A stretch of 16,183 nt of DNA, from the UHGV virus genome UHGV-0286155. One strand, given 5' to 3'. The DNA comes from a virus. Each line of letters starts with the position of its first letter. Position 1 is the first letter of the stretch. Below, in pieces: positions 1-15,676 of the stretch. The translations under genes and the position numbers were made by a program. The notes beneath the pieces were generated by a model. The model ran no database searches and was not told where the DNA came from. It was given only the letters and a program-made list of their open reading frames with translations.

Positions 1-37
1 AGTCATCTGGGGCGGAGTAACAGTATTTAAACGGTTC

Positions 38-601
38 TTGGACAACCGTAAAGATATTCGCCTTGCAGAAATTGCTAAGGATGGAGAGAAAGAACATCTC
101 CGGACTATGCAGATCATGAGCGAGCAAGAAACTAAACGCCTGCGGGTTATTTCAGAAATGATTGCGGAAAAACCACTTCTCGATAACATGGACCGTATGT
201 CGTATGACGCTAAAACCCAAATGGTCAAATCCTTTGTGCGTTCAGATAACGCTCAAATTGATGGCGTTACTATTGATTCTGAAATGGCGAAAGAGTTGGT
301 TACGAATGCTCGTAGACGTTCATCAGAAATGAGGATTGATGGTATTTACCGAATTGAAGAAGTCAATAATACTGACCCAGAGAGTTTCAAAGTTAAGGTC
401 CGACGCGTAGATACCGACCAACGTCTAACCTGCGTAGTTCAGGATGTTTTCCTTGATGAATCCGGAAACAAAGAAGCATTGCAGCGAGCTGAGTGGGAAA
501 GAAAGCCTGTACATTTGAGCATTAACGCAAAACACGTCGATGGTGACATTAAGTCAGCAGTAATTCTCTATGTTCGAGATGTGGAACAAAAGCCCGAGTA
601 A
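38..601 (+). CDS. hypothetical protein, possibly 5'-truncated by the window edge
   Basis: 187-codon ORF. The track start is a TTG and the frame stays open back to nt 2, so the true start may lie upstream of the window. Convergent with the Q gene. No family recognised. Confidence 0.4.
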   Translation: MDNRKDIRLAEIAKDGEKEHLRTMQIMSEQETKRLRVISEMIAEKPLLDNMDRMSYDAKTQMVKSFVRSDNAQIDGVTIDSEMAKELVTNARRRSSEMRIDGIYRIEEVNNTDPESFKVKVRRVDTDQRLTCVVQDVFLDESGNKEALQRAEWERKPVHLSINAKHVDGDIKSAVILYVRDVEQKPE

Positions 602-608
602 TCGGGCT
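589..608. terminator. hairpin between convergent genes, possible bidirectional terminator
   Basis: AAGCCCGA-GTAA-TCGGGCTT stem-loop overlapping the stop codon of the 38..601 ORF and lying 8 nt beyond the Q stop. Read on the minus strand, the 6-bp GC core is followed by UUUUGUU. The U-tract on the plus strand is poor. Confidence 0.3.
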
Positions 609-615
609 TCAATAA

Positions 616-993
616 TCAATCTTTAATTTCGGGGTCCATCTCTAGACTAATTTCCAGCATCGATAGGCAGCCATCAATAAACCCCTCAGCCATCTGTATC
701 TCAATGCGTATTAGTTTCTCATCCTTTTTACGAGCCTTGGCGAGCTTTCTTTTAGAGATACCGTATAGGTAATGGGCAACAAGAAGCGAATGTTCGTCCG
801 GCCTTTTTTGCCTTAGACGAGCAAGACAACCTTCAATAATTAATGCATCACTATCTGAACATGCCTGACGTGTTTTGCTTGTATAGGGAAGAAGCCCTTT
901 AAACCCAGCAGCTATAGGAGAATAGTCTACTCCTGAACTATCACTCGCCGCCCATGCTCCCCAACGATCCAGAACCATTTGAATATCACGCAT
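616..993 (-). CDS. late-gene antiterminator Q, short QuuD-like type (Phage_antitermQ family)
   Basis: N-terminal MRDIQMVLDRWGAWAA and a size of about 125 aa match, from memory, the short Q antiterminators of E. coli lambdoid prophages. The ATG at 993 has a GGAGAAAG RBS 5 nt upstream; the track start at 1008 is a TTG. It is the last gene of the leftward early operon, the expected position for Q. Confidence 0.6.
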   Translation of the reverse strand: MRDIQMVLDRWGAWAASDSSGVDYSPIAAGFKGLLPYTSKTRQACSDSDALIIEGCLARLRQKRPDEHSLLVAHYLYGISKRKLAKARKKDEKLIRIEIQMAEGFIDGCLSMLEISLEMDPEIKD

Positions 994-1010
994 CAACTTT
1001 CTCCACAAAA

Positions 1011-2006
1011 TCAGGCCAGCACGCCAATTGCCAGCGCACGATCGATAAAACGAAATATCAGCTCCAGCTGAGAGCCATACTTTTCTTCAAATACCACGGT
1101 ATCCGCATGCAGCTCGTCGTGATGCTTTCTGCACAAAGGCAGCACGAAGAGGTCATGCGCTTTTGTACCCATTCCACCCTGACCGTGGCCTATCAGGTGG
1201 TGGGGATCATCTGCAGGCTTTCCACAACATGCACACGGCTGCGTCTTAACCCAGCGCGTGTACTTTTCGTTAACCCAGCGGCGACGTTTGGGACGTAACA
1301 TAAAAGACTCCGGCGACTCCGGATCCACTTTCAGCGCCAGCACCTTTTTCGCCTTATCCTGGATGATGCTGGTGGCAGGAACCGAAGGCACAAGGTCACT
1401 TTCCCGGGTAACAGACGGCACAACAGGCTTCGGTAATCTCAGTGCCTTACGGGCTGCACTTTCCGGTAAGGCATCCGCCAGATCATTACGAATCAGCCAC
1501 CAGCACAGTTCCGGCATTGTCACAACGTGACTGTCATCAAAACCGAGATCCCGACGCACAACAGACAACACCCAGCGGGCACAGTTATCCGTTGCCATTG
1601 ATTCCAGCCGTTCCGTGAACTGATCGCGCAGCTGGTTATCGCAGTGCCAGCACAGACGGATTGCACCCGGAGCGTGTCGCATTGTGGTCATGTTCTCGCT
1701 GTGCCAGTCGGAATGAGGCCACTGGCAGCCTTTTTCACGAAGTAACCAGCTTTCAAGACATTCCACGCCACCAGCACGACGGATCACTGCCTCATTGCGG
1801 AACACGGCCCGAACAGCAGGATCATCCGCCAGCGGTTGTGATGCCGCGGGAACGGCACCACTGGCGAAAGATGAATAACGTTCCGGCTCAGGCTCCAGCA
1901 GTACACGCCCCTGCATAAACAGGGGCATCAGCTCTGAACCTGGTCTGAACAATACGATCCCCATACGCGGGGCAATTTCAGGGGTCAGTAGTGCTCTCAC
2001 GGTCAC
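1011..2006 (-). CDS. DUF968/YdfU-like prophage protein with C-terminal Cys/His cluster
   Basis: 331-aa ORF directly upstream of Q, as ydfU is in the Qin prophage. The C-terminus carries CACCGKPADDPHHLIGHG...CRKHHDELH, a zinc-finger/HNH-like Cys-His motif. Tightly packed with its neighbours. Confidence 0.5.
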   Translation of the reverse strand: MTVRALLTPEIAPRMGIVLFRPGSELMPLFMQGRVLLEPEPERYSSFASGAVPAASQPLADDPAVRAVFRNEAVIRRAGGVECLESWLLREKGCQWPHSDWHSENMTTMRHAPGAIRLCWHCDNQLRDQFTERLESMATDNCARWVLSVVRRDLGFDDSHVVTMPELCWWLIRNDLADALPESAARKALRLPKPVVPSVTRESDLVPSVPATSIIQDKAKKVLALKVDPESPESFMLRPKRRRWVNEKYTRWVKTQPCACCGKPADDPHHLIGHGQGGMGTKAHDLFVLPLCRKHHDELHADTVVFEEKYGSQLELIFRFIDRALAIGVLA

Positions 2007-2007
2007 C

Positions 2008-2805
2008 TCAATGAACGGTATCGAGCAGCTTTAACAGCTCAGGGAATCGGGATTCGAAGAAATGCGGCTGCGTCTCGCGCGGATTTGCAGGACTGGTAAT
2101 GTTCTTGCCGAACATGCAGCCTTTCGCCGTCAGCGACCAGAATTTTTTGATGTTGTTAATCGCGGTACGGCTGTATCGTTCGCGCTGCTCGACGATCCCC
2201 AGCTTCACCATCTGGTGATATGCCTGATTAGCTGTCAGGCGGATACCATACTGCTTCAGCAATGCACTCAGTGACAGCGTGGGGCGGCTTGAGCCATCAG
2301 GCGCGTCAGCAGGAGCATCAATGGCATAGCGCGGTGCCAGATTCGGTAAGCCAACAGCCTCCTGAAGTTTCTGACAGGCTCCAAGCACTGAAGAGTTAGA
2401 CAGATTTAACTCCCGGCGCATAAAGTCCAGCAGAATCACGCCAGCCTGCATCTTGTCAGCAGCCTGTCCGGATAATTTTTCAGGTGCGCTGGTTACCATG
2501 TCGAAAGTACGGATCACCTTCAGATGGAATGACGGGCTGATCCACATTGCATAGGCATACACCAGTTCTTTGCAGACATACGTCCCCTGGTTATTTCCGC
2601 CACGAATAACGTTAACTGGCTCTATATTGACCGAGTTGCAAATCTGCAACTCGCTTATTAAACGTTCAGTTTGCTCATTGCGGAGCCAGAATGCAGGCTT
2701 ATGCTTATCCAGAGAACCGGCAGCCCTGTGCAGATCGTTCAGGCTGTAACGACCATAAGCATCACGACGAACTTCAATACCATCAATGACCATCAGATTA
2801 TTCAT
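2008..2805 (-). CDS. KilA-N domain protein (antirepressor-like)
   Basis: The N-terminus MVIDGIEVRRDAYGRYSLNDLHRAAG...PAFWLRNEQ fits the KilA-N DNA-binding domain signature. Strong RBS GAGGAGAAA upstream of the ATG at 2805. Confidence 0.6.
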   Translation of the reverse strand: MNNLMVIDGIEVRRDAYGRYSLNDLHRAAGSLDKHKPAFWLRNEQTERLISELQICNSVNIEPVNVIRGGNNQGTYVCKELVYAYAMWISPSFHLKVIRTFDMVTSAPEKLSGQAADKMQAGVILLDFMRRELNLSNSSVLGACQKLQEAVGLPNLAPRYAIDAPADAPDGSSRPTLSLSALLKQYGIRLTANQAYHQMVKLGIVEQRERYSRTAINNIKKFWSLTAKGCMFGKNITSPANPRETQPHFFESRFPELLKLLDTVH

Positions 2806-2824
2806 ACTTCGTTTCTCCTCTTAA

Positions 2825-3214
2825 TCAGGCGGCTGCACCCGCCGGTTTCTCGTACTTACTGATAGTGATCTCGACCTTCCCTTCCGGGATAACCGGTCCC
2901 CACTCCACCAGCATTCTTTTCACCTGACTGTCGTCTTCCCACACACCCGCGTGGGTCAGGGCGTCAAACAGCGCCTTGTTATAGTTGTCCAGATCGCGGA
3001 TCCGGTTATCCGGAGGAAACAACACGATCTCCACTGAAGCTGGTGCCGACGTTGGTTTCGGCAGACGGCGTAACTGCTCAATGATGGCGGCACACGCCGC
3101 GCCCTGGAATTTACGCCCCGCCGCGCTTATCAGGCTCTTACCTGCAAAAGCCCCTTTGTTGGGGTGTCGCCAGTACGTGTTCACGCTGGGGGGAAACGGC
3201 AGGATCAGCTTCAT
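2825..3214 (-). CDS. rusA: Holliday junction resolvase RusA
   Basis: 129 aa. N-terminal LPFPPSVNTYWRH and the central DLDNYNKALFDALTHAGVWEDD acidic motif are characteristic of the RusA family. The start overlaps the upstream stop as ATGA. Confidence 0.8.
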   Translation of the reverse strand: MKLILPFPPSVNTYWRHPNKGAFAGKSLISAAGRKFQGAACAAIIEQLRRLPKPTSAPASVEIVLFPPDNRIRDLDNYNKALFDALTHAGVWEDDSQVKRMLVEWGPVIPEGKVEITISKYEKPAGAAA

Positions 3215-3537
3215 ACTTTCAGCCCCCTCTCATGTAACCAGTGGGCTGCACGCAGCCTGCCGTTTTCCTCACCGGCAAGCAGTGCGCGGATAATCCCGAC
3301 CGCCTCGCTGTCGTCGTCCTTCACCGCGGTATGAAGCGTTATCCCCCGGGCCACGCCACGCTTTATCGTGATGACGCCTTTTTTCTCCAGTGCGCGAAGA
3401 TGCTCTACCGCTGCATTCACTGAACGGTATCCCAGCATGGTTGCCACCTCCTGATTGGTTGGCGGGAAGCCACGTTCTTGCTGGTAAGAAATCAGCATAT
3501 CCAGCACCTGCTGCTGGCATTGAGTTAACGTCGTCAT
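3211..3537 (-). CDS. LexA N-terminal DNA-binding-domain-like protein lacking the S24 peptidase domain
   Basis: The first ~70 aa align from memory with the LexA winged-helix domain: QQQVLDMLISYQQERGFPPTNQEVATMLGYRSVNAAVEHLRALEKKGVI against LexA [49 protein letters not shown]. No Ala-Gly/Ser-Lys protease module follows. ATGA overlaps with both neighbours. Confidence 0.55.
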   Translation of the reverse strand: MTTLTQCQQQVLDMLISYQQERGFPPTNQEVATMLGYRSVNAAVEHLRALEKKGVITIKRGVARGITLHTAVKDDDSEAVGIIRALLAGEENGRLRAAHWLHERGLKV

Positions 3538-4187
3538 GCCGCCATCTCCCTGACCAGTTTTTCCGCCTGCTGGCGAACCTGCACCAGAAACGCCTCACCA
3601 CATGCCTCAAGTTCATCGCGCCCGATGTAGCTGATTGCCGGTCCCTTCCAGGTCTTGTCGAAAACAGCAATAGCACCAGCGAAGAAAGCACCTGTCGGCA
3701 CCTGCTTCTCGTCCTTCGGGATAAACCAGGCAGGCAGTTCAAAACCAATACGCCCGCGAATAAAAGCAATATGGTCCGCATCTTCCGGCCACCACACTTC
3801 ACTGGTGGCAGCTTTGATCAGGAAAACATAGCGCCCGCCTTTATCACGCATGGCACTGGCATGTTTCATGATGTAACGCATGCCGGTGATGTATTGCCCC
3901 TCATGCTGACTGGCGCGGCTGTATGGGGGATTACCAAAGGCAGCACCTTTAAGCTCCGCAAGGCGTTCTGACCAGTCATGCGCCAGCGCGTTGTCTTCCG
4001 CCGTGTAATACGCGGCACATTTGGCGTTATCACCGTCAGTGAACAGATCCAGAACAAACGGGCCAAACAGGGTGTTAATTCCCCAGAAAATGTTGTCCGG
4101 CGTGCGCCACTGATCGCCCACTTCCTTCAGTTCATGGGCTGGTTTGTTCCGCAGTTCCACCAGTGCCTGACAATATTTATTACTCAT
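3534..4187 (-). CDS. phage-type DNA N6-adenine methyltransferase (Dam-like)
   Basis: NPPY catalytic motif (AAFGNPPYSRA) and overall phage Dam-family resemblance. The preferred start is the ATG at 4187 (MSNKYCQ...), which overlaps the upstream stop as TAATG; the track start at 4220 would overlap the upstream gene by 34 nt. Confidence 0.7.
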   Translation of the reverse strand: MSNKYCQALVELRNKPAHELKEVGDQWRTPDNIFWGINTLFGPFVLDLFTDGDNAKCAAYYTAEDNALAHDWSERLAELKGAAFGNPPYSRASQHEGQYITGMRYIMKHASAMRDKGGRYVFLIKAATSEVWWPEDADHIAFIRGRIGFELPAWFIPKDEKQVPTGAFFAGAIAVFDKTWKGPAISYIGRDELEACGEAFLVQVRQQAEKLVREMAA

Positions 4188-4675
4188 TAAGCCCCCACGT
4201 AATTCCCTGACAGATACCACTCTTCACCCGATGCAGCGCGCTTGCTGCTTTTCTGTAAGCACTGCTCACGACGCGCCAGAAAATTGTTTCGTTCTGGCTG
4301 GGAGTGGCTTTCACGGAATACCGCCATCCACACGGTTGCAGCACGACGGTATAAGCCCCTGGACTCCAGTTCTTCAGCCTGGCGGGTCAGGCACAAAATC
4401 ACCCGTGGATCGTTAGTGCCGACATAGAAATTGCGCACAGGTCTGGTTTCTCGAACTGGTTGTGGTTCCGGTTCCTGCGCTCTCTCAGTCAGGCGCGGGA
4501 AATGTCTGCGTGTATCTCCTTCACAACGGTGAGCCACACGCCCACTCTGACGTAACTTGCTTGCTGACTGCAGAACGCGCTGCCGTGAGTAACCTGCAAA
4601 AGCATCCGCAATGTCTCCGGAAGTACATCCCGGATGGGCTTCAATGAATTTCTGAACTTCATTCAAAAGACTCAT
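4187..4675 (-). CDS. hypothetical protein with PerC/Pch-like C-terminal motif
   Basis: The C-terminal AEELESRGLYRRAATVWMAV resembles, from memory, the AE-LE--G-(W/Y)RRAA--W signature of PerC/Pch activators. The ATG at 4675 has an AGGGGG RBS; the track start at 4681 is a GTG. Confidence 0.4.
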   Translation of the reverse strand: MSLLNEVQKFIEAHPGCTSGDIADAFAGYSRQRVLQSASKLRQSGRVAHRCEGDTRRHFPRLTERAQEPEPQPVRETRPVRNFYVGTNDPRVILCLTRQAEELESRGLYRRAATVWMAVFRESHSQPERNNFLARREQCLQKSSKRAASGEEWYLSGNYVGA

Positions 4676-4677
4676 GA

Positions 4678-5619
4678 TCACCCCCTGAATCCTGCCGGGA
4701 TCTGGCTGTAGTCCACGTTGTCGTAACTGGATTTGAAGTACGGGTCTTCGCGTTTTTCGGTGTACGTGCTGACGGACGGTGATAAGCGCAGGGAAAGCTC
4801 ATCCCATTTTTCCCGCAACTTCGACGGGCTGAGCACGTTACGGCACCAGAACGGATCGCGGCTGACGCGGCTGTACATCTCGCAGATTTGTTTGTGAGTA
4901 CGACCATCCTGCACACACATCAGGCGAATTTCGTTTGCCCAGGCTGTCCAGTTCGGTTCTTTGGGACGAACCACCTCGCCGTCACATTCGGCGGCTTGCT
5001 CGTACAGGGCGATGATTTTTTTCCAGAGCCACTGTGCGCAGGTCAAATCATCCTGCGTTCCCCACTGGCGCTTTTTAGGGCTGAATACAACCGCATCAGG
5101 ATGGCGAGTTAAAAAATCCTGTTCATCCGTCTGCGTGTCCGGTTGCGAAGCGTCCGGACGAGAAGGTTTTTTATCTGACGGATCATGTTTTGATTTTACT
5201 GACGGATCCCCGCCAGATTCTGACGGGTGAAAACCCGCTTTTTTGCCAGATTTCGACGCATCAAATTTTGACGGGTCAGATTTTGATGCGTCAGATTTTG
5301 ACGGGTCAGAATCTGACAGTTGAGAAAATGCCGCTGCCTGAAGCTTCGCAACGTTAAGCTGATAAACATTCGACGCATTGCGGTTACCCTGGCGACGCGC
5401 CTTACGCGTTAACCAGCCTTCTGCTTCCAGCCGTGCGATAGCCGTCCTGACGGTACTCATCCCCGCGCCAATCTGACGGGCAATAGTTTCAATTGATGGC
5501 CAGCACACACCTTCGTCATTACTGAAATCAGCCAGGCGGGCCATAATTGCCACGCTGGATAATTTCATGCCTGATGCAGCGCAACCATCCCATACATAGC
5601 CGGTTAATTTAGTGCTCAT
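4678..5619 (-). CDS. replication initiator, lambda O-like architecture (N-terminal HTH, iteron-encoded linker)
   Basis: N-terminal HTH-type domain (WPSIETIARQIGAGMSTVRTAIARLEAEGWL), then a low-complexity linker SDSDPSKSDASKSDPSKFDASKSGKK encoded by the tandem DNA repeats at 5214-5321, then a C-terminal domain. It sits where lambda O sits, downstream of cro and the CII-position gene. GAGGT RBS before the ATG at 5619. Confidence 0.6.
   Translation of the reverse strand: MSTKLTGYVWDGCAASGMKLSSVAIMARLADFSNDEGVCWPSIETIARQIGAGMSTVRTAIARLEAEGWLTRKARRQGNRNASNVYQLNVAKLQAAAFSQLSDSDPSKSDASKSDPSKFDASKSGKKAGFHPSESGGDPSVKSKHDPSDKKPSRPDASQPDTQTDEQDFLTRHPDAVVFSPKKRQWGTQDDLTCAQWLWKKIIALYEQAAECDGEVVRPKEPNWTAWANEIRLMCVQDGRTHKQICEMYSRVSRDPFWCRNVLSPSKLREKWDELSLRLSPSVSTYTEKREDPYFKSSYDNVDYSQIPAGFRG
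5214..5321. repeat. iteron array, candidate replication origin inside the initiator gene
   Basis: Five tandem 15-bp units at 5247-5321 (CAGATTTCGACGCAT, CAAATTTTGACGGGT, CAGATTTTGATGCGT, CAGATTTTGACGGGT, CAGAATCTGACAGTT) plus a further copy at 5214-5228 and degenerate copies at about 5170-5207. Each unit has a TGACG..GTCA-type internal dyad. Confidence 0.55.
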
Positions 5620-5628
5620 GACCGACCT

Positions 5629-5967
5629 CTATTTCCCTGAATTTACGACGAAACTGTTCGAGCGGGCTGAAGCACTCATGCTCATAGCCTTCGCGGAGGT
5701 AGATAACTCGTTGTGTTTCCGGCTCCCAACGAATGACTCTGACGGGCACTCCGTAGTGATCTTTGAACCAGCGGTTAACTTGTCGCAAAGGACTGTCTCC
5801 TTCTGCCGGTTGAAATCACCCACAGCCCACTCAGCAAAGCTGTGGGTTACAATTTCCCTGTCACCTGGTACATTAACTGCATAGCAATACTCCACCTTCG
5901 CTTTTCCACCCGGTACAGGAAGCGCAATCAGTTGCGAGCGACGGTAGTGTGTTGTTAAACTGTTCAT
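5629..5967 (-). CDS. hypothetical protein
   Basis: 112-aa ORF in the operon orientation. Its ATG overlaps the upstream stop as ATGA and it ends 10 nt before the initiator gene's RBS. No family recognised. A plus-strand 90-aa ORF (5612..5884, GTG start) overlaps it and cannot be excluded. Confidence 0.35.
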
Positions 5968-6572
5968 GCGTTAGTTTCTCCACAGTCACGACACGCCACG
6001 GCGCCCGGAGCTGCACACTCGCGGGCGTCATTACTTTCTGAAATGCAAAAGATTTTGTAGACCAGTGCTGCATGCTCCTGCAGCTTCGAAATTGAGAGAT
6101 ACAGCTCGTCGTTAATTGCTGTCTTCTCATGCGGTTCCACCACACCGTCTTCGATTGCCGAACGAATCTGTCTGGAATAACTGCCAATCTGTTCAATGAC
6201 TTCCAGCAGGCGCTGGTTAATATCGGCGTTGTCCACATCCTCGACGTCAGGAAGAGACACAAAGACGCCATTTGCAGACTGCGCCACAGCGTCAGCAATG
6301 AAGTGAGTTCCACCAGCACGTTGCAAAATCATTGCCCATCCCAGCGGGAAAATCTGATCGCCATCGGCACGAAGGCGGTTAAATAATGCGTTTTCTGTTA
6401 CATCCAGCCAGTCAGCTGCTTCAGCGTAACCACCCGGCAACGCTGCGATAGTTTTTCTGACAGCTTTCACGTACCACTCAGGCTGTTTTTCTACTTTCCA
6501 GTGATGCTTACCCACGGTTAGCCTCATCGTTCTGTGGTTTCTGTTAATCGATTTATCCATTAGATTTTTCAT
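5964..6572 (-). CDS. CII-position regulatory protein (putative)
   Basis: ORF directly downstream of the cro-like gene. Preferred start is the ATG at 6572 (MKNLMDK...), which slightly overlaps the cro stop; the track start at 6629 would overlap cro by 77 nt. Cys cluster at the C-terminus ([14 protein letters not shown]). Function assigned by synteny only. Confidence 0.4.
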
Positions 6573-6753
6573 AAAGCTCAGGTTTAAATGGCAACCGTCC
6601 GCAAGTTCTATATGCAGCTTCTGCTGCACGTCCTTTTGGAATTAACTGGCCCGGACGGTTTCGCCACTGATAAACGGCTTCAGTTGTTATGCCGAAAAAA
6701 GCAGCAACTTTCTCAATACTGCCGAAGTAGCTTTCGATATCGTCAGTTGTCAT
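6553..6753 (-). CDS. Cro-like HTH repressor (YdaS/Cro family)
   Basis: 66 aa. HTH segment VAAFFGITTEAVYQWRN..IPKGRAAE. Divergent from the CI-like gene across a 97-bp operator region. GGAGGG RBS. Confidence 0.6.
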   Translation of the reverse strand: MTTDDIESYFGSIEKVAAFFGITTEAVYQWRNRPGQLIPKGRAAEAAYRTCGRLPFKPELYEKSNG

Positions 6754-6850
6754 ACGCCCTCCAAGCTAAGTTTTATTAGATGCTAATTACAAATCTATCT
6801 TTGGTCAATAAAAACTAAGATTACTTAGCAATTCAAGAAATGGTGCTCCT
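6754..6850. promoter_or_regulatory. divergent immunity promoter/operator region (PR/PRM-like)
   Basis: Intergenic region between the cro-like and cI-like genes. Palindromes ATTAGATGCTAAT (6775-6787) and CTAAGATTACTTAG (6815-6828). On the minus strand TTGACC-N17-TAGCAT is a candidate PR, with the first palindrome overlapping its -10. Confidence 0.5.
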
Positions 6851-7477
6851 ATGGAAACGGTTGGTCAGCGTATAAAAGCTCTGAGAAGAGTTACCGGAAC
6901 GTCCCAGAAAGAATTGGGTAAATTTTGTGGAGTAAGCGACGTTGCTGTGGGGTACTGGGAGAAAGACATCAATACCCCTGGTGGGGAGGCACTTTCGAAA
7001 TTAGCGAAGTTCTTCAATACGTCAATAGATTACATTCTTTATGGTGCTGAGTTTGAAGGCAAACTCGTCACAAACATGCGCAGAGTTCCTGTAATATCGT
7101 GGGTTCAGGCTGGGCAGTTTACTGAGTGCAGGGCAGCAGAAGTGTTTAGTGAAGTGGACAAGTGGGTAGATACATCATTAAAGATTGGTGATAACTCATT
7201 TGCATTAGAGGTTAAAGGTGACTCCATGACTAACCCTAATGGCCTCCCAACAATACCAGAAGGCGCAACAGTGATTGTAGATCCAGATGCAGAACCTCGT
7301 CATGGAAAAATAGTCATCGCTCGACTTGATGGAACAAACGAAGCTACAGTAAAAAAATTAGTCATCGATGGCCCTCAAAAGTTTTTAGTGCCATTAAATC
7401 CTCGGTATCCCAACATCCCTATCAATGGTAATTGCCTTATCATTGGTGTAGTCAAAGGAGTTCAATACGAACTCTAA
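6851..7477 (+). CDS. CI-like prophage repressor (HTH_XRE + S24 LexA-type peptidase domain)
   Basis: N-terminal HTH (QRIKALRRVTGTSQKELGKFCGVSDVAVGYWE), an Ala-Gly candidate autocleavage site (VQAGQF), the Ser motif KGDSMTNP and a downstream Lys (ATVKKLV) typical of the S24 family. Confidence 0.8.
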   Translation: METVGQRIKALRRVTGTSQKELGKFCGVSDVAVGYWEKDINTPGGEALSKLAKFFNTSIDYILYGAEFEGKLVTNMRRVPVISWVQAGQFTECRAAEVFSEVDKWVDTSLKIGDNSFALEVKGDSMTNPNGLPTIPEGATVIVDPDAEPRHGKIVIARLDGTNEATVKKLVIDGPQKFLVPLNPRYPNIPINGNCLIIGVVKGVQYEL

Positions 7478-7661
7478 GACCTCTCTTCTCTAACTAAGGC
7501 ACCGAACTAAGAAAAGTTTGGTGTTTTCTCTTGCCACAATAACTAAGTTAAGTTAGATTTTATATCAAAGATAACGAACAGGCAGGACGCCCACGAAGTA
7601 GCCGCCGGTGGCGTATGAATGACCGGATGATTCGTTAAATACTATGTGTAAGAGAGCGCAA

Positions 7662-7865
7662 ATGAACCGTTATTTCACATGCTCGTTTTGTGGCGCAAAC
7701 GAGCTGCAGGCAAAAAAAATCATCGCCAAAGGCGGAAAAGATGAAGTTGCTATCTGCTCTGAGTGCGTAGTCTTGTGTGTCGGGGCATTAATCAATATCA
7801 GCACAACTATTCAGTTCACACCAAATGAGAATGCGCCTTTAGATGCGAGGAAATCTGGAGGTTAA
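7662..7865 (+). CDS. small protein with ClpX-type C4 zinc-binding domain
   Basis: YFTCSFCGANELQAKKIIAKGGKDEVAICSECVVLCVGAL aligns from memory with the ClpX N-domain [37 protein letters not shown], including both Cys pairs. Start chosen at the ATG at 7662; the track start is 7644. Confidence 0.55.
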   Translation: MNRYFTCSFCGANELQAKKIIAKGGKDEVAICSECVVLCVGALINISTTIQFTPNENAPLDARKSGG

Positions 7866-7924
7866 AGAACAAAATGAAAGTCCAGATTTTAAACAATAAC
7901 TGTGAAGTCGTTTGGGCGTAAAAC

Positions 7925-8131
7925 ATGACCGCGCGTAGACCAAGGGAGGAAAAAGTGGGAATAGTTAGAAATCAAGCAGATATATTGAAAATCAGCTCTG
8001 AATTGCTTGGAGTTTTGAAAAGTGAGCTCACCGCACATGGCATCGAGCCCACTGACGAAAATTTAAGTTGGGTTTTGTCGATTATTCAACAATCACTCAA
8101 GCCCAGCCTCAGCAAACTTTTTATCGAGTAG
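7925..8131 (+). CDS. hypothetical small protein
   Basis: 68-aa ORF in the operon orientation. No recognisable family; not N-like, as it lacks an Arg-rich motif. Confidence 0.25.
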   Translation: MTARRPREEKVGIVRNQADILKISSELLGVLKSELTAHGIEPTDENLSWVLSIIQQSLKPSLSKLFIE

Positions 8132-8284
8132 TGCTTCGAACTTATCGTAAAGCTTGCTTATGTCGTCTATCGGGTTTTCTGACGTACTGTAATTTTTATC
8201 TGATGTCATGGCAGCAGTCTGATATGCAGTGTGAGTCTTAACCGATAGTTGGAATAAATAAAGAATTTTTTCTTCTTTGGTCAT
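8093..8284 (-). CDS. hypothetical small protein, antisense to the operon
   Basis: The ATG at 8284 is preceded by an AAGGAAA RBS. 63 aa. Its 3' end overlaps the 7925..8131 ORF by 39 nt. Confidence 0.3.
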   Translation of the reverse strand: MTKEEKILYLFQLSVKTHTAYQTAAMTSDKNYSTSENPIDDISKLYDKFEALLDKKFAEAGLE

Positions 8285-8394
8285 AACTATTTCCTTCTTG
8301 GCTATATGAAAACACCAAGATACCACCGAGCCTGAAGTGGTGAAAAGACAGGCACATAACAGCTAAGTATTTTCAACCAGAGAGAATCCTTAGC

Positions 8395-8710
8395 GTTGTG
8401 GTGAATGCGGCTCAGCGCACGCGGGTTAAGGTTGAGGCTGACAGTCGACCTTCTGTGGATACCCACCCGCCTGGTGTGCAACCTTCGCCAGGCACCGGGA
8501 GGCACCCGGCACCACAACTTTATGCTGTGTGTAGTCTTGGCGGTACCAGCTTGTACCCTTGCTTCCGGCTGGTACCGTCCTTTTTACAAAACAGAGAAGA
8601 GCATCACCGGACGACGGGCTCATAACCCAATCCATCCGGGCGGCTGCCACCGCAGGTGTTCTTCTCTGTTTTGTGGAGAAACTAACCGCCCCTACGGGGG
8701 CATTTATGGA
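8395..8710. ncRNA. candidate structured non-coding RNA locus, strand undetermined
   Basis: GC-rich stretch carrying only mutually overlapping ORFs in several frames with implausible Arg/Cys/Pro-rich products. Nested inverted repeats: GGTACCAGC/GCTGGTACC (8542-8576), a 14-bp long-range stem ACAAAACAGAGAAG/CTTCTCTGTTTTGT (8586-8599 with 8661-8674), CCGGG-AGGCA-CCCGG (8495-8509), and GCCCC-UACG-GGGGC (8688-8701) followed by AUUUAU. Confidence 0.3.
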
Positions 8711-8798
8711 AATGTAATTGACTCAATAATCGCCGGACGGTGAGGGCCTCCTTTTACCCGAATTCAGCGCGGTGCAGCGCATATACGTGGAGAACAAA

Positions 8799-9335
8799 AT
8801 GTCATTTATTAAAACTTTTTCCGGGAAGCATTTTTATTATGACAGGATAAATAAAGACGACATCGTTATTAACGATATCGCGGTTTCCCTTTCAAATATC
8901 TGTCGCTTTGCAGGACATCTTTCACACTTCTACAGTGTCGCCCAACATGCGGTGCTTTGCAGCCAGCTAGTGCCACAGGAATTTGCTTTTGAAGCTTTAA
9001 TGCATGATGCAACAGAAGCATATTGCCAGGACATCCCCGCACCACTGAAACGACTTCTTCCTGACTATAAACGGATGGAAGAAAAAATAGACGCCGTAAT
9101 CCGTGAGAAATACGGGTTACCTCCTGTTATGAGCACGCCAGTGAAATATGCCGATCTCATTATGCTGGCAACCGAACGCCGCGATCTCGGGCTTGATGAT
9201 GGCTCTTTCTGGCCTGTACTGGAAGGTATCCCGGCAACAGAGATGTTCAAAGTGATTCCACAGGCACCGGGCCATGCCTACGGGATGTTTATGGAACGTT
9301 TTAACGAGTTATCGGAGTTACGCAAATGCGCATGA
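8799..9335 (+). CDS. HD-domain phosphohydrolase (YfdR-like)
   Basis: H...HD...D metal-binding pattern (SVAQHAVL, ALMHDATEA, CQDIPAPLKRLL). GGAGAA RBS before the ATG at 8799 gives a 178-aa product, matching from memory the length of E. coli YfdR. Confidence 0.7.
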   Translation: MSFIKTFSGKHFYYDRINKDDIVINDIAVSLSNICRFAGHLSHFYSVAQHAVLCSQLVPQEFAFEALMHDATEAYCQDIPAPLKRLLPDYKRMEEKIDAVIREKYGLPPVMSTPVKYADLIMLATERRDLGLDDGSFWPVLEGIPATEMFKVIPQAPGHAYGMFMERFNELSELRKCA

Positions 9336-9688
9336 ATGTTTTCGAAATGGAAGGGTTTCTTCGTGGGAGATGTGTACCGCGAGATCTGAAAGTGAATGAA
9401 ACAGATGCTGAATACCTGGTGCGTAAATTCGATGCGCTTGAAGCTAAATGTGCAGCACAGGAAAACAAAGTAATACCAGTGTCAACTGAACTGCCACCAG
9501 CAAATGAAAGTGTTTTGTTATTCGATGCTAACGGAGAAGGCTGGCTAATTGGCTGGCGTTCTCTCTGGTACACCTGGGGACAAAAAGAAACCGGAGAATG
9601 GCAGTGGACATTTCAGGTCGGGAGCCTTGAAAACGTCAATATCACTCACTGGGCAGTAATGCCAAAAGCACCGGAGGCTGGAGCATAA
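9326..9688 (+). CDS. small Trp-rich prophage protein (DUF551/YfdS-like)
   Basis: 120 aa with a Trp-rich C-terminal half (GWLIGWRSLWYTWGQKETGEWQWTF). Start overlaps the HD gene stop. Size and position after the HD gene parallel yfdS from memory. Confidence 0.4.
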   Translation: MRMNVFEMEGFLRGRCVPRDLKVNETDAEYLVRKFDALEAKCAAQENKVIPVSTELPPANESVLLFDANGEGWLIGWRSLWYTWGQKETGEWQWTFQVGSLENVNITHWAVMPKAPEAGA

Positions 9689-9993
9689 TGACCACTTTTA
9701 CCGACAAAGAACTGATTAAAGAAATTAAAGAGCGTATCAGCAGCCTTGACGTGCGAGACGATATTGAGCGCCGTGCTTATGAAATCGCACTCCTATCTCT
9801 GGAAGTAGAACCAGATGAACGCGAAGCTTATGAATTATTCATGGAAAAGCGTTTCGGTGACTTAGTAGATCGTCGGAGAGCAAAAAACGGCGATAACGAA
9901 TACATGGCATGGGATATGACTCTCGGTTGGATCGTCTGGCAGCAACGAGCAGGTCTCCATTTTTCAACAATGTCACAACAAGAGGTGAAATAA
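9688..9993 (+). CDS. hypothetical protein (YfdT-like by position)
   Basis: 101-aa ORF. The ATG overlaps the upstream stop as TAATG with a GGAG RBS. Acidic and helical in composition. Confidence 0.4.
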   Translation: MTTFTDKELIKEIKERISSLDVRDDIERRAYEIALLSLEVEPDEREAYELFMEKRFGDLVDRRRAKNGDNEYMAWDMTLGWIVWQQRAGLHFSTMSQQEVK

Positions 9994-10343
9994 TGGAGCC
10001 ATACAGCCTCACACTCGATGAGGCCTGTCATTTTCTCAAGATATCCAGACCGACTGCCATTAACTGGATACGCACAGGGCGTCTTCAGGCAACACGCAAA
10101 GATCCCACTAAGAATAAATCTCCTTACCTCACAACACGACAAGCCTGCATTGCGGCTCTTCAGTCTCCGCTGCATACTGTCCAGGTGAGCGCGGGTGATG
10201 GCATAACAGAGGAAAGAAAATGTCACTCTTCCGCAGAGGTGAAATATGGTACGCCAGTTTCACATTGCCGAACGGTAAAAGATTTAAACAGTCTCTTGGA
10301 ACAAAGGACAAAAGGCAGGCGACAGAACTCCATGACAAGCTAA
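9993..10343 (+). CDS. xis: excisionase (Xis), P22-like long form
   Basis: Start at the ATG at 9993 (GAGGTG RBS, TAATG overlap with the upstream stop). HTH-like [26 protein letters not shown]. 116 codons. Directly upstream of int, overlapping its 5' end by about 124 nt. Confidence 0.5.
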
Positions 10344-11383
10344 AGGCTGAAGCATGGCGGGTCAGCAAACTTGGTGAAATACCTGATATAACGTTCGAGG
10401 AAGCGTGTGTCAGGTGGCTTGAAGAGAAAGCACATAAAAAATCACTGGACGATGACAAAAGCCGGATCGGATTCTGGCTTCAACATTTCGCAGGAATGCA
10501 ACTAAGAGACATTACTGAATCAAAAATTTATTCAGCAATGCAGAAAATGACGAACCGGCGTCATGAGGAAAACTGGAAACTCAGGGCAGAAGCATGCAGA
10601 AAAAAAGGGAAACCTGTTCCAGAATACACGCCAAAACCAGCGTCCGTTGCAACGAAGGCTACGCATCTTTCATTTATAAAGGCCCTACTAAGAGCCGCAG
10701 AGCGTGAATGGAAAATGCTGGATAAGGCACCAATTATTAAAGTGCCCCAACCAAAGAATAAACGGATCCGCTGGCTGGAGCCCCATGAAGCACAAAGGCT
10801 GATTGATGAATGTCCGGAGCCATTAAAGTCTGTTGTTGAATTTGCACTGGCAACAGGCTTAAGACGCTCGAACATCATCAACCTTGAATGGCAACAAATA
10901 GATATGCAGCGCCGGGTGGCATGGATAAACCCGGAAGAGAGTAAATCAAACCGCGCAATTGGCGTTGCGCTGAATGATACTGCATGTCGCGTATTGAAAA
11001 AACAAATCGGGAATCATCACCGTTGGGTATTTGTGTACAAGGAAAGCTGTACCAAACCAGACGGAACGAAAGCGCCAACAGTCAGGAAGATGCGGTATGA
11101 CGCAAACACAGCCTGGAAAGCGGCGCTGAGACGGGCTGGTATTGATGATTTCAGATTTCACGACTTGAGACACACATGGGCAAGTTGGCTGGTTCAAGCC
11201 GGAGTCCCGTTGTCAGTGTTACAGGAAATGGGAGGCTGGGAGTCTATCGAAATGGTTCGTCGATATGCTCACCTTGCACCTAATCACCTTACCGAACACG
11301 CACGGCAAATAGACTCGATCCTAAACCCATCGGTCCCAAATTTGTCCCAGTCAAAAAATAAGGAAGGTACTAATGATGTGTAA
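10220..11383 (+). CDS. int: tyrosine integrase, lambda/P22 family
   Basis: 387 aa. N-terminal arm-binding domain [27 protein letters not shown]. Catalytic signature residues in GLRRSN, HDLRHT and the Tyr in VRRYAHL. The gene ends 14 nt before the tRNA-Thr 3' segment. Confidence 0.9.
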
Positions 11384-11397
11384 CTTATTGATTTAAA

Positions 11398-11446
11398 TGG
11401 TGCCGATAATAGGAGTCGAACCTACGACCTTCGCATTACGAATGCG
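11398..11446 (-). tRNA. partial tRNA-Thr(CGU): 3' 49 nt only, att core
   Basis: The reverse complement CGCATTCGTAATGCGAAGGTCGTAGGTTCGACTCCTATTATCGGCACCA matches the anticodon arm through the 3' CCA of enterobacterial thrW as I recall it. The D-arm and 5' acceptor strand are absent; sequence beyond 11446 is unrelated. Confidence 0.75.
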
Positions 11447-11629: not shown

Positions 11630-12949
11630 ATGGCGCTTTCAAGACAAAAACTAACCTTCGAACGAATTCGAAGATTTACTTTACCTGAAGGGAAAAACCA
11701 AGTTTTCCTTTGGGATACGGACGTAACAAGCTTGGCATGTCGAGCAACTCGTGGAGCAAAAGCCTTTGTATTCCAAAGCCTGTATGCGGGAAAAACCCTT
11801 CGCATGACCATTGGCAACATTAACGATTGGAGGATTGATGATGCGAGGGCCGAAGCCAGGCGACTGCAAACATTAATCGATACTGGGATAGATCCGCGTA
11901 TAGCTAAGGCGGAAAAAATTGCTGAAGCGGAATCACAGCAGGCTGAATCTCGTAAAACGAAGGCAACCTTTTCAAGCGCTTGGGAAGATTATCTTGATGA
12001 ATTGAGAACCGGAATCAGCGCAAAAACTAAACGCCCCTACTCTGCACGCTACATTGCCGATCACGTTAACTTGTCCAGTCGTGGAGGCGAAAGTAAAAAA
12101 AGAGGCCGGGGCTCAACCTCACCTGGGCCACTGGCTAGCCTGCTCGACCGACCATTATCAGAACTAACACCAGAGAACATTGCCGAATGGCTAAGTACAG
12201 AGAGACAAAATCGGCCTACCGTCACTGCTCATGCCTACCGTCTGTTGCGTGCATTCATCAAATGGGCTAATTACCAGAAAAAATATCAGGGAATAATCCA
12301 TGGCGATCTTGCACAAGATCATAACGTGAGAAAAATGGTTCCAATATCAGCGAGCAAAGCGGGAGATTGCTTACAAAAAGAACAGCTCAAAAGCTGGTTC
12401 AGTGCCGTGCGTAGCCTCAATAATCCCATTGCATCAGCCTATCTCCAAGTGCTTTTGCTCACCGGTGCACGGCGTGAAGAAATTTCCTCACTTCGCTGGT
12501 CTGACATAGATTTCAAATGGTCAAGCATGAGAATTAAAGACAAGATCGAAGGCGAGCGAATTATCCCCCTCACTCCCTATGTTTCTTACTTGTTACGCTC
12601 ACTGATGGAGATCCCTAATCGTGGTACAAACGAGGAGAATTGGGTTTTCAGAAGTAACAGCAAAAGTGGCAAAATTATTGAACCGCGTTCAGCACATAAT
12701 AGAGCATTAACTCGCGCGGAGTTACCACATATCAGCTTGCACGGATTGCGCCGTAGTTTTGGGACCCTCGCTGAATGGGTCGAAGTACCAACAGGTATTG
12801 TTGCGCAGATTATGGGCCATAAGCCTAGCGCTCTTGCTGAAAAGCACTATCGCCGCCGTCCATTAGATTTGCTAAGAAAATGGCATGAAAAAGTTGAATT
12901 ATGGATCTTAGAAGAAGCAAAAATAAAAAACAACGTTGATAAGCGTTGA
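11630..12949 (+). CDS. tyrosine integrase, P4/CP4-type
   Basis: 439 aa. The N-terminal pattern (LTFERIRRFTLPEGKNQVFLWDTDVTSLACR...GIDPR) is typical of P4-like integrases. Catalytic motifs LTGARREE, HGLRRSFGT and the Tyr in AEKHYRR. Begins about 180 nt from the tRNA fragment. Confidence 0.85.
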   Translation: MALSRQKLTFERIRRFTLPEGKNQVFLWDTDVTSLACRATRGAKAFVFQSLYAGKTLRMTIGNINDWRIDDARAEARRLQTLIDTGIDPRIAKAEKIAEAESQQAESRKTKATFSSAWEDYLDELRTGISAKTKRPYSARYIADHVNLSSRGGESKKRGRGSTSPGPLASLLDRPLSELTPENIAEWLSTERQNRPTVTAHAYRLLRAFIKWANYQKKYQGIIHGDLAQDHNVRKMVPISASKAGDCLQKEQLKSWFSAVRSLNNPIASAYLQVLLLTGARREEISSLRWSDIDFKWSSMRIKDKIEGERIIPLTPYVSYLLRSLMEIPNRGTNEENWVFRSNSKSGKIIEPRSAHNRALTRAELPHISLHGLRRSFGTLAEWVEVPTGIVAQIMGHKPSALAEKHYRRRPLDLLRKWHEKVELWILEEAKIKNNVDKR

Positions 12950-15055: not shown

Positions 15056-15676
15056 ATGGAATTATATCATGGTTCCCATGGTGAGCATGTGCTCGCCTAT
15101 AAAAAACATATTGAACGAGTCGTCAATGATGCTATCAGTGAATTCCCTAGAACGATGGCGTTACGTGTTGATGTTCATTATCCACCCATTTTAGACAGAG
15201 GTGACACTGTTTGCTGTTTTCCTAATCTAGAGCCTGGTGCTATATCCCGTTTCCGTAATGCGTTAAATGCAATGCTGGAGGCCAATGAGAAAGCCAGAGC
15301 AGCTAACGGTAAACGAATTTATCCAAACCGTGTTCGTCACGTTTGGGTACGTGAGTTTTCCGAAGAGGGAAAATGCCACTTTCATCTTGGTCTTTTTTTT
15401 AATAAAGATGCTTATTACCATTTGGGTGATTATGAGACTGAAAGCAATTTACGAATGATGATTGTAAGAGCATGGTATAGCGCACTGGGATTGGAACTGG
15501 ATGATTATCCGGGATTGGTTCACTACCCTGAAAATTGTCGTTATATATTAGACGTCAATGATTTTAACTTTGAAGGAGAATACAATAAATTACTGAATCG
15601 TCTCGACTACCTAGCTAAACTCGATACAAAAGCTTATGGAGATGGCGACCGTAGCTTCGGCTGCAGTCGCGGGTAA
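15056..15676 (+). CDS. YagK/YfjJ-family protein (Inovirus Gp2-like)
   Basis: 206 aa. Resembles from memory the YagK/YfjJ proteins of CP4-type prophage islands. Contains HFHLGLFF, an H-hydrophobic-H motif. Confidence 0.6.
   Translation: MELYHGSHGEHVLAYKKHIERVVNDAISEFPRTMALRVDVHYPPILDRGDTVCCFPNLEPGAISRFRNALNAMLEANEKARAANGKRIYPNRVRHVWVREFSEEGKCHFHLGLFFNKDAYYHLGDYETESNLRMMIVRAWYSALGLELDDYPGLVHYPENCRYILDVNDFNFEGEYNKLLNRLDYLAKLDTKAYGDGDRSFGCSRG

Follow-up and report, generated by a model that had tools for sequence, protein, structure and literature searches.

Does a phage gene that encodes the DNA-binding domain of LexA without its autoprotease specify a functional protein, and if so, which sites would that protein occupy? 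The question is raised by a 108-aa ORF at positions 3211–3537 on the minus strand (stop codon at 3211–3213, read with its translation) of the 16,183-nucleotide stretch of viral DNA that we analyzed, hereafter the window. An earlier note on this DNA had described the product as a LexA winged helix lacking the S24 peptidase module, and profile searches bore out this description. Residues 1–65 aligned to positions 1–65 of the 65-position Pfam profile LexA_DNA_bind (PF01726) with an E-value of 2.5e-19 and a score of 69.2 bits against a cut-off of 23.7, and no unrelated winged-helix family was found, while Peptidase_S24 (PF00717) did not match the 108-aa protein in the same search in which it matched the cI encoded in the window. 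The NCBIfam lexA equivalog profile TIGR00498 gave 69.8 bits, with profile positions 1–91 of 203 aligned, which is below its cut-off of 110.95, and phrog_362 matched over the whole protein (residues 1–108 to profile positions 1–106 of 106, E 1.7e-58).

We modeled the protein with AF2 from an 18-sequence alignment, which gave a pLDDT of 82.7 with values of ~80–89 over residues 1–69; a model built from the single sequence (pLDDT 56.6) was discarded. The accepted model contains helices at residues 6–22, 28–35, and 40–52 and strands at 56–58 and 66–68, forming a winged helix-turn-helix, followed by a short linker of lower confidence and a two-helix hairpin (residues 75–88 and 91–103). The top Foldseek matches were DNA-bound structures of E. 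coli LexA (3jso and 3jsp, rmsd 1.0–1.1 Å, 49–51% identity). The rmsd to 3jso was 1.1 Å over 68 columns at 50% identity, and 3jso, 1lea, and 1jhh together, which include an NMR structure of the LexA N-terminal domain, superposed at 1.0–1.3 Å over 67–70 columns; phmmer also aligned the protein with 1lea/1jhh (E about 1e-15). AF2, Foldseek, and phmmer all place the DNA-binding domain at residues 1–69 (3331–3537, minus strand), with alignment to LexA putting the recognition helix at residues 40–52 (VNAAVEHLRALEK; 3382–3420, minus strand) immediately after Ser39. The linker (residues 70–74) and the C-terminal hairpin, delimited by the AF2 secondary structure, occupy 3214–3330 on the minus strand, and the hairpin matched neither a Pfam family nor, by Foldseek, a PDB structure. 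The protein consists of a LexA winged helix of gamma-proteobacterial type, a short flexible linker, and a conserved two-helix hairpin.

The earlier note had further proposed that RecA cannot inactivate this protein, and we agree, since everything needed for RecA-stimulated autocleavage is absent: there is no S24 domain, the Ser119/Lys156 dyad is missing because the protein ends at residue 108, and there is no conserved Ala-Gly. On this last point, HMMER carries the alignment to LexA residue 86, setting LLAGE opposite the VAAGE cleavage site, with A88–G89 aligned to LexA A84–G85 at low posterior probability. The corresponding position in homologs is AN, VG, RK, ER, GG, DD, CS, or DT, and because the pair varies in this way within the family, we conclude that the window protein has no cleavage site. 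The idea that it might serve as a trans-cleavage substrate through a retained Ala-Gly was ruled out, as the pair is not conserved. The alignment suggests that the gene derives from a 5′ portion of lexA, roughly the first 270 nt.

The window contains the regulatory half of an SfII/SfV-like lambdoid prophage, in which the genes behind a pR-like promoter are tightly packed. This candidate promoter (TTGACC-17-TAGCAT, 6780–6808, minus strand), recognized by its match to the consensus, lies opposite cI, whose product has HTH and S24 domains by Pfam (6851–7477, plus strand). Downstream of it on the minus strand are a CII-like gene (5964–6629), a replication protein gene (4678–5619), PerC/YfdN (4187–4681), the phage N6-adenine methyltransferase gene dam (3534–4187; PF05869, E 1e-45; TIGR01712, E 2e-76), the LexA-like gene, the RusA Holliday-junction resolvase gene (2825–3214; PF05866), and, as identified with Pfam, KilA-N (2008–2805), DUF968/HNH (1011–2006), and antiterminator Q (616–1008). 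The start of dam is the ATG at 4187 and not the upstream GTG at 4220 given by the ORF lister. Positions 2000–5700 of the window are 97.3–97.7% identical to Shigella phage SfII and several Escherichia phages, and KilA-N, DUF968/HNH, and Q follow in the same order in SfII, SfV, cdtI, and FORC_081.

The ATGA overlaps with both neighbors that the earlier note reported can be read directly from the sequence. TCAT at 3534–3537 (minus strand) is ATGA on the coding strand, so that the TGA stop of dam overlaps the ATG of the LexA-like gene, and at TCAT 3211–3214 (minus strand) the TGA stop of the LexA-like gene likewise overlaps the ATG of rusA. Shine-Dalgarno-like GGGAG and GAGGGGG lie 9–10 nt ahead of the LexA-like and rusA ATGs. 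By its arrangement, the gene is translationally coupled to rusA and is part of the early-right operon. The only sigma-70-like match on the minus strand between the pR position and the LexA-like gene is the pR-like site itself, and because we found no promoter-like site directly upstream of the gene, it is probably transcribed from pR and most simply regarded as delayed-early. We also considered whether the dam promoter annotated in SfV could give the gene its own promoter, but this candidate was weak, and both hexamers differ in the window (TTGCGC/TACGGA in SfV versus TGGCGC/TACAGA).

The neighboring dam gene (3534–4187) appears in RefSeq phage records as "phosphoadenosine phosphosulfate reductase," a name that matches that of PHROG 33262. 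Since Pfam and NCBIfam both identify a phage N6-adenine methyltransferase, this looks like a propagated misannotation.

The LexA-like gene is widespread, with copies in 2233 of 5426 complete E. coli genomes. It is the same gene as SfV orf42 and SfII_44 ("LexA DNA binding domain protein"), belongs to PHROG 362, and is named "LexA family transcriptional regulator" in RefSeq (e.g., WP_000210164.1), "repressor, lexA family" in Stx2a phages, and "LexA-like protein" in several Escherichia phages. These annotated SfV/SfII/RefSeq members share 94–99% amino acid identity with the window protein and have the same neighbors and length. Having been annotated for years as a LexA DNA-binding-domain protein, the gene is not new as a sequence, and in the full-text literature we found no experiment on this enterobacterial family.

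Among 169 close relatives drawn from a 5.8-billion-protein collection, nearly all were 102–108 aa long and none carried S24; the longer ones were visibly mis-called fusions with neighboring genes or out-of-frame sequence. An exhaustive search of representatives added further full-length relatives of 106–118 aa at 42–53% identity (P0123, P0125, P0126, P0132, P0156, P0210, and two with N-terminal extensions). Every full-length homolog, at identities as low as about 40%, had the hairpin, and A97 and L101 did not vary. The gene is, to judge from its substitution pattern, under purifying selection, with dN/dS of 0.03–0.38 against close copies and 0.19–0.24 against distant copies, where synonymous sites are saturated. 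On IMG/VR contig L021, the LexA-like protein was 100% identical to that of the window and the DNA 97% identical, with a different region past Q.

The same representative search returned five proteins with two tandem LexA DNA-binding domains and no S24 (P0128, P0134, P0145, P0154, and P0162), in effect single-chain pseudo-dimers.

LexA contacts DNA through Ser39, Asn41, Ala42, Glu44, and Glu45 (PMC3091678). In the window protein (RSVNAAVEHLRAL), four of the five contacts remain (S39, N41, A42, and E45), and Val takes the place of E44. S39 and N41 were invariant across 18 family members, as was the wing R64-G65-I66, while the acidic residue at position 44 was consistently lost in the family. Variation was seen at the adjoining positions in some members: the Citrobacter homolog P0087 has NTIAGH at positions 41–46, P0181 and P0210 also differ within residues 42–45, and position 45 is L or I in two distant members. 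Since the contact residues of the window protein carry the gamma-proteobacterial LexA signature, a CTGT-type half-site is a fair inference, and recognition of CTGT-type sites by this protein is plausible.

The suggestion in the earlier note that CTGT-N8-ACAG boxes be sought in the window led to no SOS box. No exact match was present; there were nine one-mismatch matches against 5.25 expected by chance. We also scored sites with a position weight matrix built from 21 E. coli sites, on which genuine E. coli LexA sites score 12–27, and took scores of at least 20 as strong boxes. The best site in the window scored 13.2 and lay within an ORF (15495–15514). No CTGT-N0–14-ACAG palindrome occurred within 6 kb of the LexA-like gene, and a search of window positions 1–7700 for operator-like palindromes gave chance-level matches, none of them both conspicuous and conserved.

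Strong SOS boxes were found in 43 of 80 IMG/VR loci carrying the LexA-like gene and in none of 80 control loci around HK75-type rusA. However, in a second control, PPompW-type rusA loci without the LexA-like gene, 28 of 80 had a strong box, mostly a sister allele (…ATATCCAGTT) of the methyltransferase-start box described below, at the same place. Viewed from the boxes, the LexA-like gene was upstream of the boxed methyltransferase in 65 of 66 loci and near the boxed cI in 50 of 56. Given the boxes in the second control, we treat the co-occurrence of box and gene as linkage of neighboring modules, and SOS-box enrichment was dropped as evidence of function. SOS boxes are nonetheless on hand as candidate phage targets in many carriers, and probably also just outside the window.

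One such site is a perfect consensus SOS box (TACTGTATATAAAAACAGTA on the coding strand) inside cI, at 29167–29186 in SfII (L006) and at 765–784 in L016 and L017. It falls in the part of the gene that encodes the linker between the HTH and S24 domains, was present in all 80 IMG/VR loci with SfII-type cI, and is kept in 93%-identical alleles (mEp460 and Stx2a_1447) though the flanking bases vary. These features suggest that cI is controlled by LexA from within, that it contains a roadblock, or that it houses an internal promoter.

A second box (TACTGTAAAAATAAACAGTG, score 22.7) spans codons 3–9 of a late-region N6/N4 DNA methyltransferase gene in the interval between Q and the holin gene. It was located at 34170–34189 in SfV (L018) and at 35010–35029 in E. 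coli FORC_081 (L019), and it occurred in all 80 IMG/VR loci with the late-region methyltransferase. It is preceded by about 100 nt of non-coding DNA that is conserved and contains a stem-loop, and cdtI has a methyltransferase of the SfV/FORC_081 type at the same place. Among E. coli sequences, FORC_081 matches window positions 1–11446 best (98.7%), and its box lies ~1.1 kb beyond window position 1.

At the P0210 locus (L013, AP025685.1), positions 4476–4580 contain a terminator, the promoter-like pair TTGCAT-17-AATACT, and, 3 nt on, a consensus SOS box. Behind this box come a small ORF, the LexA-like gene, rusA, DUF968, and Q, and in this prophage the whole Q-containing operon looks to be under direct repression by LexA. 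In Klebsiella phage ST846-OXA48phi9.1 (L015), a dinI-like gene (1–234) lies close to the LexA-like gene, and a divergent gene that lies between Q and the holin gene has an SOS box (score 22.4) at 3994–4013, 16 nt upstream of it.

We compared the surroundings of the gene in nine diverged loci: those of the window, SfII, a Citrobacter prophage (64% identity), P0132 (43%), P0125 (48%), P0156 (45%), P0210 (42%), phage mEp390 (46%), and a Klebsiella phage. In eight of the nine, rusA was directly downstream, overlapping the LexA-like gene by 4 nt in seven (window, SfII, P0087, P0132, P0125, P0156, and mEp390) and starting 3 nt past its stop at the P0210 locus (L013); in the Klebsiella phage, the LexA-like gene was followed by a 67-aa ORF and no full-length rusA. 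The upstream gene varied among Dam, a C5-methyltransferase, PerC, a replication protein, and a small ORF, with Dam absent or replaced in the Citrobacter, SfIV, mEp390, L007, L011, and L013 loci, and the gene after rusA was KilA-N, pRha/ANT, or DUF968. The LexA-like gene moves among mosaic phages whose modules for immunity, replication, and Q differ, without any non-coding element that accompanies it across the diverged loci. This pattern is consistent with a target found in all hosts.

Within the literature, the closest counterpart is gp6 of the Bacillus tectivirus GIL01, a truncated LexA homologue that consists primarily of the DNA-binding domain, is encoded by an early gene, and is 44% identical to the host LexA domain (Fornelos et al. 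2018, PMC6182141). The site it recognizes is a palindrome of its own (GaCACA..TGTGaC) located at −43.5, through which it activates the late promoter (PMC6182141). The window gene falls into the same class of truncated LexA homologues, the likeness being to gp6 as described in that publication (PMC6182141), with 50% identity to the LexA domain in place of 44%. It differs from gp6 in its C-terminal hairpin, none being reported for gp6 (PMC6182141), in belonging to a lambdoid phage with Q, and in keeping the LexA contacts where gp6 has a palindrome of its own. With E. coli LexA, the window protein has in common the N-terminal winged helix-turn-helix, including S39, N41, A42, E45, and the wing R-G-I. 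Unlike LexA, it has no S24 domain, Ser119/Lys156, or conserved Ala84-Gly85, having a 35-aa helical hairpin instead of the dimerization domain, and its gene lies in a phage early operon beside rusA and scores below the TIGR00498 cut-off. Mycobacterium phage Wildcat, tectiviruses, and uncultured Caudovirales also encode stand-alone LexA_DNA_bind proteins without S24, although these share 16–42% identity with the window protein and infect other hosts; matches among BFVD structures were viral proteins of 65–150 aa, and stand-alone LexA domains are common in predicted viral structures. Phages are also known to rewire SOS-dependent regulation through GIL01 gp7 and the LexA-controlled antirepressors of the Gifsy prophages (PMC4551915, PMC3121763), but these bind LexA or phage repressors as proteins and are not LexA-like DNA binders.

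What, then, might the protein do? We tentatively favor its being a RecA-insensitive surrogate of LexA, dimerized by its hairpin, that binds CTGT-type boxes during lytic growth. Its synthesis would be confined to the time when the early-right operon is active, following induction or infection. The hairpin would supply dimerization in place of the S24 domain, and S39, N41, A42, and E45 would read CTGT-type half-sites as they do in LexA. With host LexA cleaved during lytic growth, the protein could bind SOS-type boxes anew, whether these belong to the host regulon or to phage modules, an example of a phage target being the methyltransferase-start box of the late region, and SOS-type targets would thereby be uncoupled from RecA signaling. 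This reading is favored by the LexA fold with its 50% identity to the E. coli LexA N-terminal domain, the retention of four of five contacts, and the invariant wing, by the lack of S24 in homologs, the conserved hairpin, and dN/dS below 0.4, and by the SOS boxes in 43 of 80 carrier loci and the L013 promoter-like pair overlapped by a consensus box. It is weakened by the lack of an SOS box in the window and the occurrence of boxes in loci without the gene, and by the loss of E44 and the alterations at residues 42–45 in P0087, P0181, and P0210; the SOS box of Citrobacter is the same as that of E. coli. It is weakened further because a dimer formed through a different element need not have a geometry that fits the 16-bp SOS spacing, and because gp6-like domains can drift to new sites, with gp6 activating transcription. 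A broader version, in which a prophage-encoded, RecA-proof surrogate would, in the lytic phase, re-repress the host SOS regulon together with the LexA-controlled genes of rival prophages, colicins, or toxins, and might lock phage boxes (for example, the cI-linker box and the one that opens the late methyltransferase gene), strikes us as doubtful.

Nearly as likely as a LexA surrogate is a gp6-like private regulator, a LexA-derived repressor or activator specific to the phage that would tune a phage promoter in lytic development through an operator of its own; taken by itself, we regard it as possible rather than probable. GIL01 gp6 provides a tested precedent, as an activator acting at a palindrome distinct from that of LexA (PMC6182141). 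The variation at recognition positions 42–45 is what protein/operator co-evolution would be expected to produce, the acidic residue at position 44 is consistently gone, and PHROGs labels the family "transcriptional repressor." However, the searches described above yielded neither a CTGT-N0–14-ACAG site within 6 kb nor a conspicuous conserved palindrome in positions 1–7700, and the sole constant neighbors are the coding sequences of rusA and DUF968, with almost no intergenic DNA. Moreover, the late genes are already served by the Q antiterminator, and the window protein keeps the LexA contact residues.

We consider it rather improbable that the protein has no role in transcription and instead assists the RusA resolvase as an accessory factor, for example by targeting RusA to DNA or restraining it there. 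The adjacency of rusA in eight of nine loci, while the LexA-like proteins range from 42 to 97% identity and the upstream gene varies, would be in keeping with such a partnership, but because overlapping genes leave no space for recombination, the linkage may be passive. RusA proteins 60–80% identical to that of the window occur in Salmonella F1055, Klebsiella Kp4872-1, and Yersinia YeP2, which were not among the listed tblastn matches of the LexA-like protein (all but one of 61), and the Klebsiella phage gene has a 67-aa ORF next to it rather than a full-length rusA. Furthermore, the invariant base-contact residues point to sequence-specific reading of DNA. As for a functionless, decaying remnant of a captured lexA gene, the LLAGE opposite VAAGE in the HMMER alignment is the kind of trace it might leave, but this explanation is effectively excluded: the length of 106–118 aa and the tail are conserved over about 40–97% identity, dN/dS is 0.03–0.38, 41% of complete E. 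coli genomes carry the gene, and the Ala-Gly pair varies. The conserved length and tail, the dN/dS values, and the lack of any S24-bearing close relative equally rule out a truncated pseudogene, so that the claim of a real gene rather than a fragment stands.

At present, this is a correctly read and already annotated gene for which a surrogate role for LexA is plausible. Should its product bind SOS boxes, the SOS response of an induced cell would be turned off again from within by a prophage gene that is very common, which would bear on prophage competition, Shiga-toxin release, and antibiotic-induced mutagenesis; carriers include Stx2a, Stx2c, cdt, and Shigella serotype-converting phages. If it instead has its own operator, it would be one more phage regulator of the kind described for GIL01.

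Two residues set the window protein apart from most other copies. Gly92 (codon 3262–3264), at the start of the last helix, is Ala in SfII, SfV, cdtI, FORC_081, and the close homologs read, and Gln20 (codon 3478–3480) is Lys in most copies, cdtI also having Gln.

Elsewhere in the window, PADLOC gave nothing meaningful in the way of known defense or anti-defense families, and ARAGORN found no tRNA, although tRNA-Thr borders the related prophage of FORC_081. A perfect 8-4-8 hairpin (AAGCCCGA-N4-TCGGGCTT) at 590–609, between the convergent ORF at 38–601 and Q, is probably a bidirectional terminator. The window also contains two tandem tyrosine integrases, the prophage's own at 10220–11383 and a P4-type enzyme with an Arm-DNA-binding domain at 11630–12949, followed by a YagK/YfjJ-family gene at 15056–15676. 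The P4-type integrase and the YagK/YfjJ-family gene suggest that a second integrated element abuts the prophage.
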